This document shows, one piece after another, positions 6,740-60,473 of a stretch of 64,000 nucleotides of DNA. Both the position numbers and the translations under genes were made by a program. The first letter of the stretch is position 1; each line of letters starts with the position of its first letter. Origin of the DNA: Dehalococcoidia bacterium (GTDB lineage: Bacteria; Chloroflexota; Dehalococcoidia; Lucifugimonadales; UBA3495); NCBI GenBank assembly GCA_965197655.1, contig OZ240220.1, forward strand, positions 993,788 through 1,057,787, written 5' to 3'. Under the pieces are notes generated by a model. The model saw only the letters and a list, made by a program, of their open reading frames with translations. It was not told the origin of the DNA and did no database searches.

Positions 6740-6869
6740 CAGGGTCTTTCGGTTCTCGACGGAGTTGGCGGGATGCAGAGGGCAACCACAAGGGTTGCCC
6801 CTACGCCCAGGATTCTGTTGGTAGGGGCTGCCCTTGTGGCAGCCCAGGGAGAAGAACCGAAAGACCCTG
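6740..6869. repeat. Palindromic repeat family C (termini CAGGGTCTTTCGGTTCTC)
   Basis: cagggtctttcggttctc ... gagaagaaccgaaagaccctg with core gggttgcccctacgcccagga. Near-identical copy at 10731-10864. Confidence 0.85.
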
Positions 6870-6962: not shown

Positions 6963-7039
6963 GGCGCATTCGTCTAGCGGCCCAGGACACCGCCCTCTCA
7001 AGGCGGAGATCAGGGGTTCGAATCCCCTATGCGCTACCA
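6963..7039 (+). tRNA. tRNA-Glu (anticodon CUC), CCA encoded
   Basis: I folded the cloverleaf by hand: acceptor GGCGCAT/ATGCGCT (G1-U72 wobble), D arm GTCT..GGAC, anticodon stem CCGCC/GGCGG with loop CTCTCAA, T arm AGGGG-TTCGAAT-CCCCT. Very close to E. coli tRNA-Glu. Confidence 0.9.
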
Positions 7040-9287: not shown

Positions 9288-9403
9288 AACAATTTGTTTG
9301 CTACGGAGCAACTCCCGGCGTCACCTTAGCTAAAGAAGAGCGATACTTGGACGGGTTTCAAACCATCTGTTCCGACTAACGCGAGTGCTCATCGCTAAGA
9401 CAA

Positions 9404-9443
9404 CTTATCCGTCGTTCCTGCGAAGGCAGGAACGACGGATAAG
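9404..9443. repeat. Family A hairpin, single-arm version
   Basis: Perfect 18-bp stem cttatccgtcgttcctgc / gcaggaacgacggataag with GAAG loop. Followed at 9465-9483 by a solo IS5-type end (acttattcagaggtttcc). Confidence 0.85.
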
Positions 9444-9502
9444 TGTAAACATCACGAGTCACGGACTTATTCAGAGGTTTCCCCTAGAAGCCGGTAGGTT
9501 GA

Positions 9503-10730: not shown

Positions 10731-10864
10731 ACCGGGCCTTTCGCTTTTCAGCGGGGTTGGCGGGCGGCGGCGGGCAACCACCAGGGTTGCCCCTACGCCC
10801 AGGATGTTCTGTTTGGTGGGGGCTGCCCTTGTGGCAGCCCAGGGAGAAGAACCGAAAGACCCTG
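10731..10864. repeat. Palindromic repeat family C, second copy
   Basis: Shares gggttgcccctacgcccaggatgttctg...ggctgcccttgtggcagcccagggagaagaaccgaaagaccctg with 6740-6869. Confidence 0.85.
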
Positions 10865-10874
10865 GGATAGTAGA

Positions 10875-10988
10875 TAGGACGATTGCAAAGTCCGCGCCAA
10901 GCACCAAACCCGTTCGTGGTGAGCTTGTCGAACCATACCGCCTGGCCCTTCGACAAGCTCAGGGCGAACGGACTTTGCAATCGTCCTA
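10875..10988. mobile_element. MITE-like element with 19-bp terminal inverted repeats and a perfect 10-bp TSD
   Basis: TIR taggacgattgcaaagtcc / ggactttgcaatcgtccta. Flanked by GGATAGTAGA at 10865-10874 and 10989-10998. Interior is a nested palindrome (gagcttgtcgaa...ttcgacaagctc). Confidence 0.8.
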
Positions 10989-11071
10989 GGATAGTAGAGG
11001 GGTTGCTTTCCCGGTTCATAGCCCGATGCTATACTTGGGCCGTAGTAGCCTTATGTGATTATGGAGGAAGC

Positions 11072-11854
11072 ATGAACGGAGCGGAATTGAAAGCCACCCT
11101 GCAAGCGGGTGGCCGGGTATATGGCACGATGATAACCCACGGGCGCAATCCCCGCTGGGTGGAAGCCCTGGGCGGCATCGGCCTGGATTACGTGGTGATC
11201 GATACGGAGCATGGGCCGCGCAGCCGGGCCGAGTTGGCCGATTACCTGGCCGCCTTTAGCGGCTCCGGCGTGGTTCCCATTATGCGCATCCCCATACCGG
11301 CCTCCCACTATGTAACGATGGCCCTGGATGCCGGGGCGCAGGGGATTTTGGCGCCCTACTGCGAAACGGTGGAAGAGGTCAAGGAGGTAATCGGCGCAGC
11401 CAAGTGGCGCCCCTTGAAGGGCGAAGCGGTCCGGCGCCTGATGGACAGCGGCGAGCACGTCAGCGACGCCAGCCGTGCCTACCTGGAACAGCGCAACCGG
11501 AATACTGTCGCCATCATCGGCATCGAAAGTGTGACGGCGGTCAACAACCTGGAAGAAATCCTGAAGGTGCCAGGGATTGACGGCATCTTTGTTGGGCCGA
11601 ATGATATGAGCATATCCGTGGGCTACCCCGACCAGTACGACCGTCCCGAATACCAGGATACGGTCAAGAAGGTAATAGACACCTCGGAAGCGCACGGAAT
11701 CCCGACCCTGGTGCATCACCAGACGTCAGACCTGTCCGCCCACTGGGTCCGGCAAGGGGCGCGTTTTGTGCTGCACACCACCGACCGGCGTACGCTGGCC
11801 GAGGCTTATCGGCGGGATTTCGCGGCTTTAAGGGAAGTGGCGGCGGAAAACTAG
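11072..11854 (+). CDS. HpcH/HpaI-family aldolase
   Basis: GLDYVVIDTEHGP plus a TIM-barrel aldolase pattern. ATG 11072 follows GGAGGA; the longer ORF in the track reads through repeats. Confidence 0.75.
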   Translation: MNGAELKATLQAGGRVYGTMITHGRNPRWVEALGGIGLDYVVIDTEHGPRSRAELADYLAAFSGSGVVPIMRIPIPASHYVTMALDAGAQGILAPYCETVEEVKEVIGAAKWRPLKGEAVRRLMDSGEHVSDASRAYLEQRNRNTVAIIGIESVTAVNNLEEILKVPGIDGIFVGPNDMSISVGYPDQYDRPEYQDTVKKVIDTSEAHGIPTLVHHQTSDLSAHWVRQGARFVLHTTDRRTLAEAYRRDFAALREVAAEN

Positions 11855-13992: not shown

Positions 13993-14144
13993 CAGGGCAA
14001 TCGCATTAGACCGAAGAACGAATACCCGTCGTTCCTGCGAAAGCAGGAACCTCTGCCCCTGACGCCAATAGATTCCTGCTTTCGCAGGAATGACGAGTAG
14101 GGCGCAGGATGACGGGTTCCCCCGATTCCAAATGCGATAGCCCT
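13993..14144. repeat. Family A element (TIR cagggcaatcgcat plus double-hairpin core)
   Basis: cagggcaatcgcatt...cgtcgttcctgcgaaagcaggaac...ttcctgctttcgcaggaatgacg...aaatgcgatagccct. Confidence 0.8.
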
Positions 14145-16011: not shown

Positions 16012-16083
16012 CCCGTCGTTCCTGCGCAGGCAGGAACCTAAAACCTCGAGAACAGAGGTTCCTGCCTGCGCAGGAACGACGGG
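16012..16083. repeat. Family A double-hairpin core only
   Basis: cccgtcgttcctgcgcaggcaggaacc-N-ggttcctgcctgcgcaggaacgacggg, 36 nt after the ligase stop. Confidence 0.85.
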
Positions 16084-16237
16084 AAAGGGTTCTTACCCAT
16101 CATCTGCCGTTGCCCGGCCCGGCTTACGCGGCGGCATTTTACCCGGTTCCTTTATGGTCTATAATTGTTAGCAAGATAGGCGAAGACAGCCCGGGTAACC
16201 TGAATTATCCGACGGTCAATTCGCCGCTGGGGGTGGT

Positions 16238-16585
16238 ATGAACAAGATAGAGGCAATCATCAGGCCGGAGAAACTAACCAGCGTTAAGGACGCCCTGGCC
16301 GCCGGCGGGCTGCCCGGCCTAAACGTAACCCAGGTTACCGGGCGGGGAGCGCAGTTGGGCATAGCAGTTGGCGGGCCTCGGGGTGTTGCCGGTAGCTATG
16401 TGGTGGATATGCTGCCCAAGGTTAAGTTGGAAACCGTGGTTCGGGACGAGGATAGCCAGCGGGCAATTGACATAATCGTCCAGAACGCCCGTACCGGAAA
16501 CATTGGCGACGGCAAGATTTTCATAACGCCCGTGGCAAATGCCATCCGTATCCGAACCGGCGAAGAGGGCGAAATTGCCCTCTAG
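16238..16585 (+). CDS. PII (GlnB/GlnK-family) signal-transduction protein with divergent T-loop
   Basis: MNKIEAIIRPEKL...TGNIGDGKIFITPV...IRIRTGEEGE. T-loop region is GRGAQLGIAVGGPRGVAGSYVVD. Confidence 0.85.
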   Translation: MNKIEAIIRPEKLTSVKDALAAGGLPGLNVTQVTGRGAQLGIAVGGPRGVAGSYVVDMLPKVKLETVVRDEDSQRAIDIIVQNARTGNIGDGKIFITPVANAIRIRTGEEGEIAL

Positions 16586-17484: not shown

Positions 17485-17653
17485 CAGGGTCTTTTTATTG
17501 TCATCCGCCTTCCGGTGTCATTCTGAGCCGCTACTGTCATTCTGAGCGGAGCGAAGAATCCTGAATCTTTACCGCCAGAACCACCGTGGTGCCGGGCAAA
17601 TGGTTGGCAAATGAGGACTTTGGATTCTTCGTCGCTCCGCTCCTCAGAATGAC
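17485..17653. repeat. Palindromic repeat family B copy (abuts the IS)
   Basis: gtcattctgagcggagcgaagaatcc ... ggattcttcgtcgctccgctcctcagaatgac. Confidence 0.85.
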
Positions 17654-17961
17654 AACTAGGGAACCTCTGAACAATTGATAGCAATGACAATTTTCGAGTG
17701 TTGCGGGCTTTGGGGGGAGACTTAGGGCCGGCTAATTGGTCGGTTTTGGTAGATTCTTGAGCCTGGCCAGGCTCGGATTTCGGGTCTGTGGGTCGATGGG
17801 GCGCACTGCCCCCTGGGTCAACTGGCTAAAAGGGCTTGGGCCGGTCTCAGGTTGGCCAGCCCCAGCAGCAGGGCCACGCGTTCAGTGTTCTTGGCCAGGC
17901 CCCGGTAGCGTACTTTGGCATAGCCGAATAGCTGCTTTACGTCCAGGAAGGGGTGTTCCAC

Positions 17962-17984
17962 CCCCGCCTTCGCGGGGGCAGGCT
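17962..17984 (-). repeat. 23-nt hairpin mini-insertion, copy 2
   Basis: Minus-strand reading is AGCCTGCCCCCGCGAAGGCGGGG, inserted between codons AAG(K) and GTG(V). Confidence 0.8.
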
Positions 17985-18581
17985 CTTGGCCCGTATCGAT
18001 GCCTTGATCTTCTCTACTACTGCCTCCCCGCTGTCCGGTTCCAGTTTCCGCCGCTGCCCCGGCCTCATGGCCACCAGCCAGTCCACCGCCAATCCCAGGT
18101 TCTCGGGGCGCTGCTGCACTCCGGTGTAGCCGGCATCTCCCCACACCTGCCGCTCCCCGCCGTGCACCAACCGGTGTGTCTCGGTCACGTCATGCACGTT
18201 AGCTGAGGTGGCGCTGCGGCGATGCACCAGACCGGTCTTGGCGTCCGCCCCGATGTGCAGCTTCATCCCAAAGTGCCATTGATTGCCCTTTTTGGTCTGG
18301 TGCATCTCTGGGTCCCGCTGCCCGGTGCGGTTCTTGGTGGATGACGGCGCTTCAATGATAGTGGCGTCCACAATGGTTCCCTCCCGCAATCGCACTCCCT
18401 GCTCTTGCCGGTGACCCTTGATTTCCTCAAACAGTCCCTGGCCCAACTGATGACGCTCCAGCAGGTGGCGAAAGTGCAGGATGGTACTCTCATCGGGAAT
18501 CGGTTCCGACAACCGCAGCCCAGCAAACCGCCGTACCGACTCCGCTTCGTACAGCAGGTCTTCCAGGGCTGGGTCGCTCAG

Positions 18582-18604
18582 AGCCTGCCCCTGCGAAGGC
18601 AGGG
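18582..18604 (+). repeat. 23-nt hairpin mini-insertion, copy 1
   Basis: Plus-strand reading is AGCCTGCCCCTGCGAAGGCAGGG, inserted between codons AAC(N) and CTG(L) of the minus-strand gene. It differs from copy 2 only by a compensatory T-A to C-G stem pair. Confidence 0.8.
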
Positions 18605-19039
18605 GTTGTAGCACAGTTGGACAATATGCACCCGCAGCAGCACGGGCAAGGGATAGGGACGCCGGCCTCGCTCCGACGGGAAGTAGCAGGGTCGAATGCG
18701 CTCTTCCAGCCGTTGCCAGGGAATCAAGGAGTCCATCCGCTCCAGGAATTCCTCCCGTCGGGTCCGCCTCCGCTTGTGCTGGTAGTCCAGATCGGCAAAG
18801 CTGGGTTGCCCGTTCATCCTCCTACTCCCTGGCCATTATCTTCCTTTCCCCTCACTATCCCATATTCAACCCTTTTATTCAGAGGTTCCCTAAAAGACCC
18901 TGGCCCCCACAGCGCGGTTATAGCATCATGCATGGGAATACCATTAGTTATTGGGAATACCGTTAGACAAGAAAGCGCCCCGGCAAGGGAAATCCGTTGC
19001 CGGGGCGTACCGTTTTACCGGCGCCTGTTTTATAGCGTA

Positions 19040-20719
19040 TTACAAGGAACCGTCGATGCTCACGTTAATTACCGCCGGTTTGCCGCTGCCAATGGCCCGT
19101 TCCAGGGCCGGGCGCAATTCCGTAGGGTCTTCCACGTTTTGGCCGGCTACTCCCATAGCCTGGGCGATTTCCGCCAAGGGCAGGGGCGTGGCGAAATCCA
19201 TCCCAACATACTCGCTGTTTCTTTCCGAGTCTTCCAGCATACCCCGCAGGTAAACGTCCATGTTTACTTTGAGAATGCGGTAGGAGCGGTTGTTGCAGAT
19301 AGCGTAGGTCACCGGAATGTTGTAGCGGGCCGCCGTCCACAATGCCTGCACCGTGTACATTGACGCGCCGTCTCCCACCACCGCTACCACCGGGCGGTCC
19401 GGGTTAGCCAGCTTGATGCCCAGCGCGCCGGGCATGGCCCAGCCGAGAGCGCCGCCCCGGATGCTGTAGAAGCTGCCCGGCGCGTCCGGCTCAATCGCCT
19501 GCAACAGGGCGCCGCGGGAGGTTATGGCTTCGTCGGCGACGATGGCATTGTCCGGCAGGGACTGGGCTAATTCGTACATCATCCGGTCCACCGGCATCGG
19601 GCGGCTGTCCGCCATCCCCTGCATCCGCTGCAGGTAGGCTTCCCTGGCCTGGCGGCGGGCGTTGCCCAGGGTCGCCGCCCTGGTTGCCGCCGCTTCCCGG
19701 GCTGGTGCGGACATATCCTGGTCCAGGGCGTCGGCCAAGTCGGCCAGCCCGGCTTGGGGATCGCAGGGTATGCCTAATTCGGTGGGATACATCTTCTCGA
19801 TTTCCTTGCCGTTACTGTCCAGGTGAATCAGCTTGGTTCCAGGCGACAGAAACGGTTCCGGCACGTACAGGAAGGAGGAAAATACGTTGGTGCCGACGGC
19901 CAACACCACGTCGGCGCCGGCCAGTTGCTGCCGGGTGGCCGAACTGTTCAGGTTCAGCATACCGGCGTACTGGTCATGGTTGGTGGGGAAGTTAACCTCG
20001 GAGTAGGTATAGGAGGTGGCAAACACCTTGGCCCCCACTTGCTCGGCCACTCGCACCAACTCGGCCATTGCGCCGGACTGTCCCACCCGGTCGCCCAGCA
20101 CGATCACCGGGTTTTCCGCCTGGGACAGCAGTTCCGAAGCCCTGGCAACGGCGGCGACATCCGGGCGCATCCTGAAGTAACCCGGCGAAGACGGGACAAT
20201 ATCAACGTCAACCTCTTCGTCCATGGTGTCCCAAGGGAAGGAAAGGAAGACCGGGCCGGTGGGCGGCGTCTTGGCTTCCTTGAAGGCCCTCCGCACCGCC
20301 ATCGGTATATTGGAGGCGTGGGGCACCTCGGCGCTCCACTTGGTGAACTGCTGGGTCATTTCCACCAGATCGCCGGACAAAACCGGCTCGCTGAGCAGCA
20401 TTCGGGTGTCCGAATTGCCGGCGGTCAGTACCAGGGGCGTGCCGCCCCGGTAGGCGTTATACAGGGCGCTGACACCGTTAGCCAACCCGCCGGCGATGTG
20501 AATGTTGGCAAAGGCCGGCTTGCCCGTGGCTCGGGCGTAACCGTCGGCCATGCCGACGGCGGTACCTTCCTGCAACGCCTGCACGTACTTGAGGTTGGGG
20601 TAGTCCTGGAGCACGTCCAAGAAGGGGGTTTCGCTGGTGCCGGGGTTTCCGAAAATGTATTCCAGGCCCTCGGCGGCGAGCATTCGGGCCAGAGCTTCCT
20701 TGCCGGTCATCCTTGCCAT
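19040..20719 (-). CDS. Thiamine-diphosphate-dependent enzyme (benzoylformate decarboxylase / acetolactate synthase family)
   Basis: N-terminal GNPGTSE, central domain, and the ThDP motif GDGASMYTVQALWTAARYNIPVTYAICNN. Confidence 0.8.
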   Translation of the reverse strand: MARMTGKEALARMLAAEGLEYIFGNPGTSETPFLDVLQDYPNLKYVQALQEGTAVGMADGYARATGKPAFANIHIAGGLANGVSALYNAYRGGTPLVLTAGNSDTRMLLSEPVLSGDLVEMTQQFTKWSAEVPHASNIPMAVRRAFKEAKTPPTGPVFLSFPWDTMDEEVDVDIVPSSPGYFRMRPDVAAVARASELLSQAENPVIVLGDRVGQSGAMAELVRVAEQVGAKVFATSYTYSEVNFPTNHDQYAGMLNLNSSATRQQLAGADVVLAVGTNVFSSFLYVPEPFLSPGTKLIHLDSNGKEIEKMYPTELGIPCDPQAGLADLADALDQDMSAPAREAAATRAATLGNARRQAREAYLQRMQGMADSRPMPVDRMMYELAQSLPDNAIVADEAITSRGALLQAIEPDAPGSFYSIRGGALGWAMPGALGIKLANPDRPVVAVVGDGASMYTVQALWTAARYNIPVTYAICNNRSYRILKVNMDVYLRGMLEDSERNSEYVGMDFATPLPLAEIAQAMGVAGQNVEDPTELRPALERAIGSGKPAVINVSIDGSL

Positions 20720-20772: not shown

Positions 20773-20905
20773 CAGGGCTATCGCATTTGGAATCGGGGAA
20801 TCCGTCATTCCTGCGAAGGCAGGAATCTAGTGGCGTCAGGGGCAGAGGTTCCTGCTTTCGCAGGAACGATGGGTTTTCGTTCTTCGGCCTAATGCGATAG
20901 CCCTG
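20773..20905. mobile_element. Family A MITE copy
   Basis: TIR cagggctatcgcat / atgcgatagccctg. Flanks are CTGTTCCGGG / CTGTTCTCGG (8/10). Confidence 0.75.
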
Positions 20906-21349: not shown

Positions 21350-21479
21350 CTAAACTCTGGCACCTTCACCCGTCGTTCCTGCGCAGGCAGGAACCTCTTT
21401 CCGCACGATTTAGGTTCCTGCCTGCGCAGGAATGACGGATGGGTTAAACATCACGGTCACGCACCTTTTCAGAGGTTTC
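21350..21479. repeat. Family A double-hairpin core with IS5-type end module
   Basis: aaactctggcaccttcacccgtcgttcctgcgcagg...ggaatgacggatgggttaaacatcacggtcacgcaccttttcagaggtttc fills the whole intergenic gap. Confidence 0.8.
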
Positions 21480-22458: not shown

Positions 22459-22625
22459 GGAACCTCTGAATAAGTCAACGACATTGCAGCGAAAGCCGAA
22501 ATTTCGGAGGGGAGCTTAGGGGCGTCAGCTATGCAATGCGCGCCGGCACCCCCATCCCCGAATCCAGTTCGGGGCAGGCTCTAACCTTCTCCCGTCGAAG
22601 GGGAAGGGACTTGTTCAGAGGTTCC
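22459..22625. mobile_element. 167-bp MITE derived from the IS5-family element
   Basis: Same termini GGAACCTCTGAAtaagtc ... gacttgTTCAGAGGTTCC. Perfect 4-bp TSD ATAG at 22455-22458 and 22626-22629. No coding capacity. Confidence 0.85.
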
Positions 22626-24364: not shown

Positions 24365-24821
24365 CGGTTGTATTGTGACGATGGAAGATGGCGCAGCCAG
24401 CAATCTCCCCGAGAATCAGCCTGCCACGTGGCAGGCTGATGTTATTCCTGAAGAGAGCCACACGTTCACCATTTCGGCACAAACATGGATTGGCCCTCTT
24501 CCCGATCCGGTTACGATGGAGCGGTACGAAAGGCTGGCACCCGGCGCAGCCGAGAGATTTCTGGGTATGATGGAAGGCGAGGTAATCCACCGTCAAGTGA
24601 TGGATTACCGGGAATCCAGGCGGCAAGATTGGGGATTAGCCGCCGCATTTATTGTGGTGGTTCTAATCGTAGCTGCCGGCGCCGGGCTGATTTATATGGG
24701 CACGGCTGGGCCGGCGCCGCTGTTATTGGCATCAACGTCGTTGGTCTGGCTGCGGTATTCATTACCGGAGGCATACGCCGGCGCGCCGGTTCGGTACAAT
24801 CTGATAACTCGGATGACCTGA
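24330..24821 (+). CDS. DUF2335-family membrane protein, probably frameshifted near 24700
   Basis: GPLPDPVTMERYERLAPGAAERFLGMMEGEVIHRQ matches DUF2335 as I recall it. The second TM helix (AVIGINVVGLAAVFITGG) lies in the +1 frame, which ends at 24832. Confidence 0.55.
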   Translation: MRSKKRKPSDANGCIVTMEDGAASNLPENQPATWQADVIPEESHTFTISAQTWIGPLPDPVTMERYERLAPGAAERFLGMMEGEVIHRQVMDYRESRRQDWGLAAAFIVVVLIVAAGAGLIYMGTAGPAPLLLASTSLVWLRYSLPEAYAGAPVRYNLITRMT

Positions 24822-26305: not shown

Positions 26306-26439
26306 CAGAGCAATCGCACGTGACGGTGAAGCCCTTCTCCCGTCGTTCCTGCGAAGGCAGGAACCTATGTCCTCAACGTTTTAGGTTCCTGCTTTCGCAG
26401 GAACGACGGATAGCCTCCAATCCAAATGCAATAGCCCTG
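26306..26439. mobile_element. Family A MITE copy with perfect 10-bp TSD
   Basis: TIR cagagcaatcgca / tgcaatagccctg. CTGGTTACGG at 26296-26305 and 26440-26449. Confidence 0.85.
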
Positions 26440-29032: not shown

Positions 29033-29113
29033 CCCCTCACCCCAGCCCTCTCCCCAAAGGAGAGGGAGCAGATTCACCCCTCGCCCTGTGGGAGAGGGGC
29101 CGGGGGTGAGGGG
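29033..29113. repeat. Palindromic repeat family D (CCCTCACCCC..GGCCCCTCTCCC..GGAGAGGGG..GGGGTGAGGG)
   Basis: Copies here and at 32438-32517 and 43015-43091. Confidence 0.85.
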
Positions 29114-29125
29114 ATGCCGGCCGGG

Positions 29126-30541: not shown

Positions 30542-30743
30542 CAGGGCTATCGCATTGGGATTGCGGGCTATCCGGTGTTCCTGCAAAAGCAGGAACTCAA
30601 GAATACTCTGAATAAGTCATTAAACTCTGGCGCTTTCACCCGTCGTTCCTGCGCAGGCAGGAACCTAAAACCTTGCGGACAGAGGTTTCTGCTTTCGCAG
30701 GAACGACGCAAAGTAGATATTTGCGTCAGATGCAATGGCCCTG
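30542..30743. repeat. Family A composite element
   Basis: TIR cagggctatcgcat / atgcaatggccctg enclosing an extra hairpin, an IS5-end-like module (actctgaataagtc) and the double-hairpin core. Confidence 0.75.
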
Positions 30744-32437: not shown

Positions 32438-32517
32438 CCCTCACCCCCGGCCCCTCTCCCACCAGGAGAGGGGTGAAGCTACTCCCTCTCCCTGGGGAGA
32501 GGGTCGGGGTGAGGGGG
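32438..32517. repeat. Family D repeat filling the gap between convergent genes
   Basis: Same motif as 29033-29113. Begins 2 nt after one stop codon and ends 6 nt before the other. Confidence 0.85.
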
Positions 32518-33473: not shown

Positions 33474-33543
33474 TCGTCGTTCCTGCGGGGGCAGAAACCT
33501 CTGCCCATAACGCTTTGAGGTTCCTGCCTCCGCAGGAACGACG
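33474..33543. repeat. Family A double-hairpin core
   Basis: tcgtcgttcctgcgggggcagaaacc...ggttcctgcctccgcaggaacgacg. Confidence 0.8.
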
Positions 33544-39497: not shown

Positions 39498-39630
39498 CCG
39501 GGACAATCGCATTATGCCGGGACACCGCTGTCCGTCGTTCCTGCTTTCGCAGGAACCTAAATCCTCCAGGTAGAAATTCCTGCCTACGCAGGAATGACGG
39601 TGGCAGGAGATGCGAAATTGCGATTGCCCG
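39498..39630. mobile_element. Family A MITE copy
   Basis: TIR ccgggacaatcgca / tgcgattgcccg. Flanks TCCACTGTAC / GCCCCTGTAC (8/10). Confidence 0.7.
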
Positions 39631-40859: not shown

Positions 40860-40994
40860 CGGGGCTATCGCATTGGGATAGCAGGCTGTCCGTCGTTTCT
40901 GCGCAAGCAGGAACCTCTGTCCTCAAGGTTTTAGGTTCCTGCCGGCGCAGGAACAACGGACAAGGCACATCTACCCTCAGGTGCAATAGCCTTG
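40860..40994. mobile_element. Family A MITE copy
   Basis: TIR cggggctatcgca / tgcaatagccttg. Flanks GGCAGAATGA / GGCAGAGTGA (9/10). Confidence 0.8.
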
Positions 40995-42886: not shown

Positions 42887-43018
42887 CAGGGTTACCGCAT
42901 TTGGATTGCAGGCTATCCGTCGTTCCTGCGCAGGCAGGAACCTCTGCTCTCAAGGCTTCAGGTTCCTGCCTGCGCAGGAACGACGGGAATATGACTGTGC
43001 GTCTTACACAATAGCCCT
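42887..43018. repeat. Family A element
   Basis: cagggttaccgcat...double-hairpin core...cacaatagccct, abutting family D copy 43015-43091. Confidence 0.75.
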
Positions 43019-46739: not shown

Positions 46740-46874
46740 AAGGGCTATCGCATATGATGGCAGATTCCCCTTTTCCGTCGTTCCTGCGAAAGCAGGAACC
46801 TCTGTCTGCAACATTTTAGGTTCCTGCTTTCGCAGGAACGACGGATAGCTTTCAATCCTACTGCGATTGCCCTG
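46740..46874. mobile_element. Family A MITE copy with perfect 10-bp TSD
   Basis: TIR aagggctatcgca / tgcgattgccctg. GGTTTGGAGC at 46730-46739 and 46875-46884. Confidence 0.85.
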
Positions 46875-57790: not shown

Positions 57791-57860
57791 CCGTCGTTCC
57801 TGCGCAGGCAGGAACCTCGCTAACCGCAATTCGAGGTTCCTGCTTTCGCAGGAACGACGG
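57791..57860. repeat. Family A double-hairpin core
   Basis: ccgtcgttcctgcgcaggcaggaacc...ggttcctgctttcgcaggaacgacgg between convergent genes. Confidence 0.85.
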
Positions 57861-59299: not shown

Positions 59300-59399
59300 T
59301 GAAAGGACGCGGCCAACTTGACAAGCCGGGGGCAGACAGCTAAAGTACCGGCAGGATAGAGGATACACCTCCGTTCAACCTTAACAAATAAATTTCACG

Positions 59400-59592
59400 T
59401 TCGGGGCACCGTGTCGGTTTAATTGGGAAGGCGGTGAGAATCCGCAGCGGTTGCGCCACTGTAAACGGGAAGCTCTTTGACCGGATTGCCACTGTCCAAA
59501 GGTTCTTACCCAGCACGAATGGGGCTGGACTAAGGAAGGGATGGGAAGGCGTCAAAGTAGCTGTGATCCGTAAGCCAGGAGACCTGCCCCGG
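59400..59592 (+). ncRNA. Cobalamin (B12) riboswitch aptamer
   Basis: aattgggaaggcggtgagaatccgc..gc..gccactgt core and B12 box agccaggagacctgcc. Located upstream of corrin-pathway genes. Confidence 0.8.
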
Positions 59593-59688
59593 AATGTTGG
59601 ACCTCTGCTCTGCGCTAAACGGAGACGGTTCTTCATGGCGGCTTGGTGGTATGTTCAGGGTTGCCGTGAATCGTACTGACCTGATAGT

Positions 59689-59774: not shown

Positions 59775-60473
59775 ATGAGCAGCGATAATACCGGAATAGC
59801 AATGACTGTGGTGGCGGTCGGCCCCGGCGACCCCCGGATGCTCACCATGCGGGGGCGGCAGGCGCTGGAAGCCGCCGACCTCGTCGTGGGTTTCAAGACC
59901 GTTCTTGATGTAGTTACCGAGTGGTGCGGCGGCGCCGAAGTGCGGCCAATGAGCTACCGGGACCAGGAAGAGGTGCTGGAGTATGCCGCCGGGCAGGCCG
60001 GACAGGGAAAGAACTGCGTGGTCTGCTGCTGGGGAGACCTGAACGTCTCGGCCCACGAACTGCTGGCCCGGGTTTACCGGCGGGCGGAAAAGGTGGAGTT
60101 GATTCCGGGAGTCAGTTCCATCCAGATAGCTTGCGCCCGCGCCGGAATTGCCCTGGAAGAGTCCCTGTTCATTACCCTGCACCGGCGGGACGGCTCGGAA
60201 CCGGCCCTGGCCGAACTTGAACGCTACTTGCGGGAGGGGCTGCGTAACATAATCCTGTTGCCCCGTCCCTTTGACCTGATGCCGCCGGGCATCGCCAGCG
60301 ACCTGGTAGCTGCCGGCATTCCCGCGGTACGCCCGGTTACGGTCTATCAGCGGCTAACTCTTGAGGGAGAAAAGGCTTGGAGCGGCACTCTGCAAGAGTG
60401 TGCCGACCTTTCCGAAGAGTTCAGCGACCTGTCGATAATGGTCTTTCTCCGATCCACTTCAGATCAAGAATAA
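59775..60473 (+). CDS. Tetrapyrrole (corrin) methyltransferase, CbiE-like
   Basis: VVAVGPGDPRMLTMRGRQALEAADLVVG is the TP_methylase N-terminal motif. Start may be ATG 59802. Confidence 0.65.
   Translation: MSSDNTGIAMTVVAVGPGDPRMLTMRGRQALEAADLVVGFKTVLDVVTEWCGGAEVRPMSYRDQEEVLEYAAGQAGQGKNCVVCCWGDLNVSAHELLARVYRRAEKVELIPGVSSIQIACARAGIALEESLFITLHRRDGSEPALAELERYLREGLRNIILLPRPFDLMPPGIASDLVAAGIPAVRPVTVYQRLTLEGEKAWSGTLQECADLSEEFSDLSIMVFLRSTSDQE

Follow-up and report, generated by a model that had tools for sequence, protein, structure and literature searches.

The IS5-Family Element and Its Two Hairpin Insertions

The 64,000-nt stretch of a Dehalococcoidia genome analysed here (contig OZ240220.1, positions 993,788 to 1,057,787; hereafter the window) carries, at 17659..18890 on the minus strand, an IS5-family insertion sequence (IS) of approximately 1232 bp, including 46 nt that belong to two short hairpins interrupting its transposase gene. 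The limits of the element were drawn from profile matches and from an alignment with eight other copies, in which it ends in the inverted repeats GGGAACCTCTGAA...TTCAGAGGTTCCC; its target duplication is TA or CTA, with an ambiguity of 1 nt at each IS boundary. The profile match, the inverted repeats and the short target duplication expected of an IS5-family member are all present. Eight loci of sister strains encode an identical neighboring thiamine pyrophosphate (TPP) enzyme, and six of them (L366-L370 and L373) were aligned to the window, with 95-98% nucleotide identity. The site is empty, reading ...gggtctttTAGttgtcatt..., at seven of the eight loci (L366-L370, L372, and L373), and the IS is therefore a strain-specific arrival.

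The transposase is read from three minus-strand open reading frames (ORFs; 18578-18817, 17937-18614, and 17818-18144) that overlap at two points, and a 23-nt hairpin lies at each break. Insertion 1 (18582..18604, plus strand; AGCCTGCCCCTGCGAAGGCAGGG), which is antisense to the transposase, consists of the tag AGCCTG followed by CCCCTGC-GAAG-GCAGGG(G); insertion 2 (17962..17984, minus strand; AGCCTGCCCCCGCGAAGGCGGGG), which lies in the sense orientation, consists of the same tag followed by CCCCCGC-GAAG-GCGGGG(G). The two 23-mers differ at two positions only, which form a T-A pair in insertion 1 and a C-G pair in insertion 2 within a 7-bp stem; an earlier note on this DNA had described their placement, opposite orientation, and compensatory difference correctly. 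As single-stranded DNA they fold with −8.6 and −9.8 kcal/mol, leaving the AGCCTG tag unpaired. A search of the 64 kb allowing up to three mismatches returned only these two 23-mers, where none was expected by chance (100 shuffles). Read in the orientation of the element, with a slash for the insertion point, the flanks are ctcAG/GTTG for insertion 1 and ccaAG/GTGG for insertion 2. Both 23-mers lie at codon boundaries, as had been noted; however, each boundary is ambiguous by one G, and this position therefore carries no weight.

Removal of exactly these 46 nt (17962-17984 and 18582-18604) joins the three minus-strand pieces of the gene, whose lengths had been given correctly before, into a 954-nt ORF of 317 amino acids. 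The first piece (18605..18817, 213 nt, codons 1-71) ends in ...VQLCYN, the second (17985..18581, 597 nt, codons 72-270) runs from LSDPALED... to ...KASIRAK, and the third (17818..17961, 144 nt, codons 271-317 and the stop codon) begins with VEHPFLDVKQ.... The colinearity across both junctions, previously argued from a comparison with Escherichia coli InsH, holds on a broader basis: the restored protein aligns with the NCBIfam profile transpos_IS5_4 as a single colinear block (positions 1-284 of the 285 in the profile, on residues 24-308; 319.6 bits, cut-off 140) and also matches Pfam DUF772 and DDE_Tnp_1, and a search of a protein collection returned dozens of homologues of exactly 317 amino acids that are 77-96% identical to it over their full length. 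An alignment of 1184 nt between the window copy and the closest intact IS copy (locus L365, encoding protein P0002) contains 22 mismatches and, as its only gaps, two of 23 nt each. The restored 317-codon ORF is thus not coincidental.

Each insertion shifts the reading frame of the transposase. The frame entered at insertion 1 meets a TGA at the end of the insert, and copies of the IS with insertion 2 alone encode a 285-amino acid product without the catalytic Glu. Insertion 2 directly precedes the codons for VEHPF, which we take to hold this residue, given that the R-x3-E-x6-K spacing that the IS5 group has in its catalytic motif also occurs in RAKVEHPFLDVK of the restored protein; it would hence cut off this Glu, a member of the DDE triad, from the remainder of the transposase. 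Judged from the sequence, the window copy is probably transposase-dead and would be mobile only with transposase from intact siblings; the dead copy having landed at a new locus, it would therefore have been mobilized in trans. A single 4.08-Mb contig encodes both interrupted copies and intact relatives (P0005 and P0024). No relevant Rfam family was matched at the gathering threshold over the whole window or at a permissive threshold over 17500-19100.

Filled and Empty Sites Among Copies of the Insertion Sequence

Comparison of the copies of this IS identified three independent insertion sites, each seen both filled and empty. The window is the only copy with an insert at site 1, between CTACAAC and CTGAGC as read along the sense strand of the transposase; L001-L008 and L365 lack it there. 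At site 2, the window and L001-L006 carry an insert, and no insert is present in L007, L008, or L365. L007 and L008 alone are occupied at site 3, where AGCCTGCCCCGTTGCAGAACGGG, a 23-mer with another stem and a GCAG loop, stands between GCCAAG and GTACGC (gccAAG/AGCCTGCCCCGTTGCAGAACGGG/GTAC). Thus, L365 lacks both of the 23-mers of the window, and L007 and L008 are without them at sites 1 and 2. All three inserts are 23 nt long, start with AGCCTGCCCC, end with GGG, and are flanked by AG on one side and GT on the other in the orientation of the element. Traces of site 2 are also found at the protein level: several homologues cover just 85-90% of the restored transposase and end in an out-of-frame tail, KASIRAK-SLPPRRRGWNTPSWT (P0068, P0070, P0082, and P0101), and this tail is identical to that of the middle ORF of the window. 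The center of the IS is nearly identical among subfamilies, whereas the ends differ. Many copies of this IS family are decaying, with truncations and other indels.

Several of these copies carry rearrangements of other kinds. L374, a sister copy of the L007 IS, reads GCCAGAAGGTAC (approximately 2320-2340 of L374) at the position of the L007 23-mer, where other copies read GCCAAAGTAC or GCCAAGGTAC; it has 2 extra nt and the same shifted frame. This state could be a remnant of hairpin loss, although a single deletion does not explain it. In L003-L006 (e.g., L003, 10244-10270), GGAGCCTGCCCTGAGCGCAGCCGAAGG replaces TAC in both IS copies of one strain, and neither orthologous copy of the other strain (L001 and L002) has this block. 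The 27-nt block is in frame, encoding GACPERSRR; that two loci carry it in concert suggests that the IS copies have exchanged sequence by gene conversion. It shares the start AGCCTGCCC and resembles CCTGAGC-nnnn-TCGAAGG repeats that are abundant in L249; it was excluded from the hairpin family because it does not fold into a hairpin and replaces TAC instead of being a simple insertion. In addition, L001 contains a 148-bp insertion (16168-16315) resembling a MITE (miniature inverted-repeat transposable element), with the ends ATAGTATTACAACGACAG...CCGTCGTTGTAATA and ATA flanks, which is absent from the orthologous L003 and L004. Three IS5-family homologues, P0001 (451 amino acids), P0032 (463 amino acids), and P0085 (396 amino acids), have internal tandem duplications of approximately 80-130 core residues.

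Distribution of the AGCCTG Hairpin Family

A third member of the hairpin family is present in the window at 22557..22580 on the minus strand. This intergenic copy, AGCCTG followed by CCCCGAA-CTGGA-TTCGGG(G), has a 5-nt loop and the flanks ggttAG and GATGGGGGTG, and it is present in all aligned sister strains with no indel at this position (the L366 orthologue was identified). Beyond the window, the exact 24-mer pattern AGCCTGCCCCNGCGAAGGCNGGGG was found in 20 stretches of a viral-contig collection and in at least 120 stretches of a collection of one genome per species, spanning many phyla. Among the matches listed, the hosts are Alpha-, Beta-, and Gammaproteobacteria, Desulfobacterota, Acidobacteria, Planctomycetota, one cyanobacterium, Bacteroidota, Bdellovibrionales, and a WWE3 genome of the Candidate Phyla Radiation (CPR), together with 13 loci from Dehalococcoidia genomes; isolates are represented by Stenotrophomonas sp. 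PS02298, Sphingobium sp. AP50, Chthonobacter rhizosphaerae, Fulvimonas soli DSM 14263, and Lysobacter sp. ISL-50.

In a control scan with the bare hairpin CCCCNGCGAAGGCNGGGG, the usual 5′ neighbor was CCGTCG or CCGTCA, and AGCCTG preceded the hairpin in 6 of the 120 stretches listed, which is far above the expectation of 1 in 4096. Furthermore, the 1.2 Mb of fetched loci contain 35 additional hairpins (24 distinct) of the form AGCCTG + CCCC...GGGG with other stems and loops, as compared with a mean of 2.7 for permuted tags; the single permutation with a high count, GAGCCT, detects members of this family with a start one base earlier. The more general pattern AGCCTGCCCC-N10-GGGG was applied in a pilot on viral contigs only. 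A test for ORF restoration on the viral matches gave no information, since long runs without stop codons are found in every frame of G+C-rich DNA. In five viral contigs (L013, L099, L105, L239, and L241), a predicted phage protein reads through the hairpin in frame close to its N-terminus (MSPTLEQ-PPPSRGQA-SWTPEM), which may reflect an insertion tolerated within the gene or a wrongly called start.

Anatomy, Target Preference, and Genomic Setting

The 123 unique copies show a strong enrichment of AG at the insertion point. Upstream of the element, position −2 is A in 81 copies (66%; background 0.19, p = 6e-30) and position −1 is G in 87 copies (71%; background 0.31, p = 2e-19), and the commonest upstream trinucleotides are CAG, AAG, and TAG. 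The G that follows the 23-mer was imposed by the search pattern, and it is the empty sites of the IS that assign this G to the target; the next base is G in 56 copies and T in 34. Consequently, of the AG/GT flank proposed in the earlier note, which both window copies possess, the AG is enriched throughout the family, whereas the T is found in only 34 of the 123 copies. The two free stem positions form a Watson-Crick pair in 109 copies (33% expected, p = 1e-37), namely C-G in 50, G-C in 36, T-A in 13, and A-T in 10, and eight further copies have T·G. The pair variants are distributed by lineage: C-G and T-A are the only kinds in Dehalococcoidia, both of which are represented by the 23-mers of the window, and G-C predominates in Alphaproteobacteria. 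These lineage-specific variants argue for amplification within lineages and against contamination. The insert measures 23 nt, or 24 nt with a 5-nt loop, without target duplication, and it is exactly 23 nt at all sites for which an empty or restorable counterpart is available, i.e., the three IS sites and at least nine other transposase genes. With neither terminal inverted repeats beyond the hairpin nor a duplication, the element does not qualify as a MITE.

Most copies are intergenic or lie inside other repeats, and, apart from nested or tandem arrays in L240, L247, and L249, nearly all are single. Once the 23-mer is removed, 22 of 122 sites turn out to lie inside a perfect hairpin, as compared with 146 of 2388 control AG/G sites (6%; Fisher p = 1e-5). 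Examples of such contexts are cgtcattcccgcgaAG before and Gcgggaatcc after the 23-mer (L248 and L327), cgtcgttcctgcgaaggcAG before and Gaac after it (L329), ..GGTGCCCGAAG and GGCGGATGAGGG in Xanthomonadales, and ..GGAGAGGGTTAG and GGTGAGGG in Dehalococcoidia, the last of which is also the context of the third copy in the window. In L249, a CGTC hairpin in which a 24-nt insert separates CGTCATTCCCGCGGAG from GCGGGAACCC stands next to a copy of that hairpin without the insert.

Transposase ORFs that are recognizable by Pfam or by conserved motifs account for 12 of the 122 unique sites and represent six IS families. Removal of the 23-mer restores a single colinear Pfam match spanning the junction in an IS3 element (rve) of L302, in IS5 (DDE_Tnp_1) of L358, IS66 of L275, IS630 (DDE_3) of L333, and IS256 (Transposase_mut) of L297; the same holds for an IS3 element (rve) of L323, which harbors two hairpins 98 nt apart. 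In an IS21 element (L289), a continuous frame of 390 amino acids results, with the junction placed between its rve match and its Mu-transposase C-terminal match. These hairpins are found in either orientation relative to the ORF and in differing codon phases. Since a 23-nt insert shifts the frame, survival is expected in dispensable genes, and the share of IS genes is about what tolerance alone predicts; targeting is therefore not inferred. For genome annotation, it matters that such 23-mers yield split "pseudogene" transposases and spurious peptides such as SLPPRRRG.

Relation to Known Mobile Hairpins

Among known repeats, the AGCCTG hairpin most readily invites comparison with the repetitive extragenic palindromes (REPs), for which only the tags GTAG and CGTC have been recognized (Di Nocera et al., 2013; PMC3733652). 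GTAG REPs are cleaved by TnpAREP at a dinucleotide selected by guide pairing, and the Stenotrophomonas REP is 23 nt long (PMC8266576). Relative to the REPs and REPINs mobilized by REP-associated tyrosine transposases (RAYTs), especially group-3 REPs such as that of Stenotrophomonas, the AGCCTG element has the same size, a perfect G+C-rich hairpin immediately preceded by a short, unpaired 5′ tag, a defined orientation without target duplication, variable stems in which pairing is kept, and occasional intragenic copies (PMC8266576; PMC3733652); its 7-bp stem also agrees with the GTAG-type palindrome of 20-40 nt with maintained pairing. By contrast, no RAYT gene was found near any copy in the loci searched.

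No transposase was found for the CGTC class (Di Nocera et al., 2013; PMC3733652). The small GIY-YIG nuclease SsnA binds and cuts such repeats, also called NTS or Ssn-related motifs, only when they are single-stranded, and the upstream tag governs this cleavage (Chenal et al., 2025; PMC11893778). They resemble the AGCCTG hairpin in the hairpin apex YGCGAAGGCR with 4-5-nt loops, in the oriented arrangement of tag and hairpin, and in cross-phylum spread (PMC3733652; PMC11893778). Moreover, CGTC REPs and AGCCTG hairpins share genomes, and the latter are often inserted in the loops of CGTC hairpins. On the other hand, the AGCCTG hairpin has a stem of CCCC... rather than (A/G)TTCC..., and lacks the CGTC tag, the CCA tail, and the head-to-head dimer. 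Of the characters that define the CGTC class (a CGTC, TGTC, or CCTC tag, an 8-9-bp stem with starting A/T pairs, a CCA tail, and dimers), the 23-mers show none, whereas the hairpins designated family A in the earlier note, abundant elsewhere in the window, show all. The apex GCGAAGGC that the note had recognized as common to both is real, and family A turns out to be the known CGTC-tagged, Ssn-related class. Having the defining tag of neither class, the AGCCTG hairpin is read here as a new tag class of REP-like mobile hairpin.

Elements of the IS200/IS605 type likewise insert in one orientation 3′ of a short specific sequence without target duplication, as is observed here, and a hairpin and a 5′ guide take part in their recognition; as expected under the guide model, the target AG and the CT of the tag are complementary. 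The AGCCTG element differs in having one hairpin instead of two different ends, no transposase gene, and a target of only 2-3 nt. Rickettsia palindromic elements and intragenic REPs are also palindromic repeats in protein-coding genes; however, those are longer, in frame, and tolerated in functional proteins, whereas the AGCCTG element is 23 nt long, frameshifting, and found in dispensable IS genes. Short G+C-rich hairpins that interrupt ORFs, or translational bypass, are also known from the mobile GC clusters of yeast mitochondria, from "byp" elements, and from T4 gene 60. In comparison with byp elements, no sign of bypassing is seen here, and matched take-off and landing codons are found at only one of the two sites in the window. 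Full-text literature searches with strings of the hairpin sequence returned unrelated primers only and no description of the element.

Origin of the Insertions

We consider it probable that the 23-mers are independent insertions of a REP-like, non-autonomous mobile hairpin that moves as single-stranded DNA. This reading is favored because the insert has a constant length of 23 nt, enters at AG in one orientation without duplication, conserves both tag and structure, and is enriched in hairpin loops. In the model, the element comprises the unpaired 6-nt tag AGCCTG and a 7-bp G+C-rich stem with a 4-nt loop (CCCCNGC-GAAG-GCN′GGG), the stem of which would be completed by the first G of the target. 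It would enter in one orientation between AG and G, adding 23 nt (24 nt with a 5-nt loop) and no duplication. By analogy with known systems, it may move as single-stranded DNA, an enzyme recognizing tag and hairpin would cut and rejoin it, and the target AG may be selected through complementarity to the CT of the tag, as in IS608 and REP/TnpAREP. Candidates for such an enzyme are an HUH Y1 transposase (RAYT or IS200 type) and a GIY-YIG nuclease similar to Ssn. The earlier proposal of a sequence-specific mobile hairpin, REP/RAYT- or IS200-like, is borne out by the filled and empty sites, three in this IS family and others in at least eight further transposase genes, insofar as it concerns a mobile, oriented, and site-selective element.

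Several observations weigh against this reading. A mobilizing enzyme was not found: the ORFs within 1.5 kb of 140 copies, when clustered, contained no common family beyond IS genes, and crude regular expressions for HUH/Y1 and GIY-YIG proteins, whose silence is weak evidence, had no match in the window or in the 1.2 Mb of loci. The single-strandedness of the process and the pairing between guide and target are postulated by analogy. Approximately 30% of the copies are without an upstream AG, and the insertion at site 2 may be common to the IS copies by descent or gene conversion and not by repeated insertion. Finally, in comparison with REPs, the tag in all copies is AGCCTG (or CCTG), and neither GTAG/GTGG nor CGTC; the copies are singletons and not inverted doublets or clusters of bacterial interspersed mosaic elements (BIMEs); and an identical 24-mer is found across phyla, whereas REPs are normally lineage-specific. 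In the search for an enzyme, inverted hairpin pairs in L237 and L238 were found to enclose nothing RAYT-like, and apparent terminal repeats in L292, which enclose housekeeping genes, were dismissed as probably an artifact of locus cutting.

The main rival dispenses with a dedicated enzyme and invokes template switching during replication at microhomologies (AG to the left and G to the right) or gene conversion among IS copies. There is indeed microhomology at both junctions, between the target AG and the AG... of the element and between its ...GGG and the target G. The nearly identical IS center in different subfamilies suggests recombination among copies, and the 27-nt block shared by both IS copies of one strain and by neither copy of the other points in the same direction. 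Template switching, however, would be expected to leave ragged ends and explains uniform ends poorly, and the insert is always exactly 23 nt where an empty or restorable site is available. Moreover, the tag, the orientation, and the AG flank recur in 123 unique contexts and in many phyla, and the conservation of tag and hairpin while the stem interior covaries argues for recognition of structure; we therefore regard an origin without a dedicated enzyme as rather unlikely. Local mutation or an assembly or sequencing artifact might be suspected, since many of the sources are metagenome-assembled genomes, but can be considered refuted for practical purposes: the insertion at site 2 is present in the independent assemblies ERZ25069138, ERZ25072076, ERZ25067264, and ERZ23495182, the same 24-mer is found in isolate genomes of Stenotrophomonas, Sphingobium, Lysobacter, Fulvimonas, and Chthonobacter, and zero chance matches are expected.

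Two further explanations would assign the hairpin a function, and both appear very improbable. According to the first, already raised in the earlier note, the 23-mers are removable intervening sequences that gate the transposase through DNA excision, RNA processing, frameshifting, or bypass, such that the IS stays autonomous. IS copies that carry the hairpin at site 2 occupy several loci and occur in five or more assemblies, and have thus multiplied; the take-off codon AAG at site 2 is matched by the AAG of the loop, landing at which would be in frame with two extra codons, and a +1 shift added to the 23 nt also restores the frame. Against gating, the two hairpins are oppositely oriented with respect to the mRNA, site 1 has no matching codon and its insert ends in TGA, the catalytic Glu is lost, and the same element, with identical hairpins, breaks unrelated transposases of six other IS families in both orientations and in varied phases. 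Intact siblings able to act in trans (P0005 and P0024) are present in the same genomes, the region matches no Rfam family, and many copies of this IS family are plainly decaying; this idea thus finds no support. The other explanation, marginally less improbable, sees the hairpin as a host weapon, i.e., a defense-like insertion into transposase genes or transposition intermediates. It could draw on the 12 of 122 unique sites in transposase ORFs of six IS families and on three sites at the catalytic-Glu K/VE position (the window, L289, and L334; L277 is similar). Yet this share is about that expected if frameshifts survive in dispensable DNA only, as IS elements make up, by our estimate, roughly 10-15% of non-essential sequence; most copies are intergenic or in other repeats; the K/VE matches follow from the AAG/GT target preference; and no associated gene was found within 1.5 kb of the 140 copies. 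A host weapon is not needed for the data.

The spread of REP-type hairpins has been argued largely from in vitro cleavage and copy-number patterns, and clean insertions with known empty sites are rare. The insertions described here can be read to the nucleotide because their hosts are conserved transposase genes, and they define both a substrate and a target with which an enzyme may be sought. They also suggest that tagged hairpins beyond GTAG and CGTC exist, and document that hairpins nest in each other and in insertion sequences. It is tempting to speculate further that the AGCCTG hairpin represents a distinct third class of tagged REP, at 23 nt perhaps the smallest DNA element that inserts with nucleotide-exact junctions, carried across bacterial phyla by an undescribed hairpin-specific single-stranded DNA enzyme or by a new specificity of Ssn or RAYT, and that recurrent knockouts of DDE transposases at AAG/GT in the catalytic-Glu codon act as a brake on IS elements; as a whole, this extended scenario appears doubtful.

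Other Repeats and Features of the Window

Family A, CCGTC-GTTCCTGC-nnnn-GCAGGAAC-CT, is represented by approximately 14 CGTC-tagged copies in the 64 kb, mostly as head-to-head doublets approximately 20 nt apart, and fits the CGTC-tagged REP class (Di Nocera et al., 2013; PMC3733652). These are located at 9403-9444, 14031-14091, 16018-16077, 20807-20867, 21375-21432, 26345-26404, 30577-30664, 33489-33539, 39537-39595, 40935-40954, 42922-42981, 46780-46839, and 57796-57855. The loops vary (gaag, gaaa, gcag, and their complements), and the copy at 9403-9444 is an extended hairpin of 19 bp. A CGTC doublet beside the TPP-enzyme gene (approximately 20780-20880, and also approximately 21390-21430) corresponds to a 104-nt block that is present in the window, L366, and L369 and absent from L367, L368, L370, and L373; strains with 95-98% identity therefore differ in their CGTC repeats. 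In L367, the neighboring CGTC doublet is partly deleted.

A third repeat family, CTCACCCC..CCCTCTCC-loop-GGAGAGGG..GGGGTGAGGG, provides the usual host context of the AGCCTG hairpins in Dehalococcoidia; it forms an 82-nt block at approximately 29035-29115 that, among the aligned sister strains, is present in the window strain only, and is also found at 32451-32503. A perfect 11-bp palindrome, ATCAGCCTGCC-ACGT-GGCAGGCTGAT, with AGCCTGCC on both arms, occupies 24415-24440 in a segment that is missing from L369. A paired-hairpin repeat, GGGCAACC-n5-GGTTGCCC ... GGGCTGCC-cttgt-GGCAGCCC, is present in two copies (6780-6845 and 10772-10840), and the ORF at 10883-11854 begins with the repeat-encoded peptides PFVVSLSNH...PFDKLRANG, because of which its assigned start is probably spurious. 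The window also contains a tRNA gene at 6963-7036 and, upstream of the gene at 59775, a cobalamin riboswitch (59387-59605; 96 bits).

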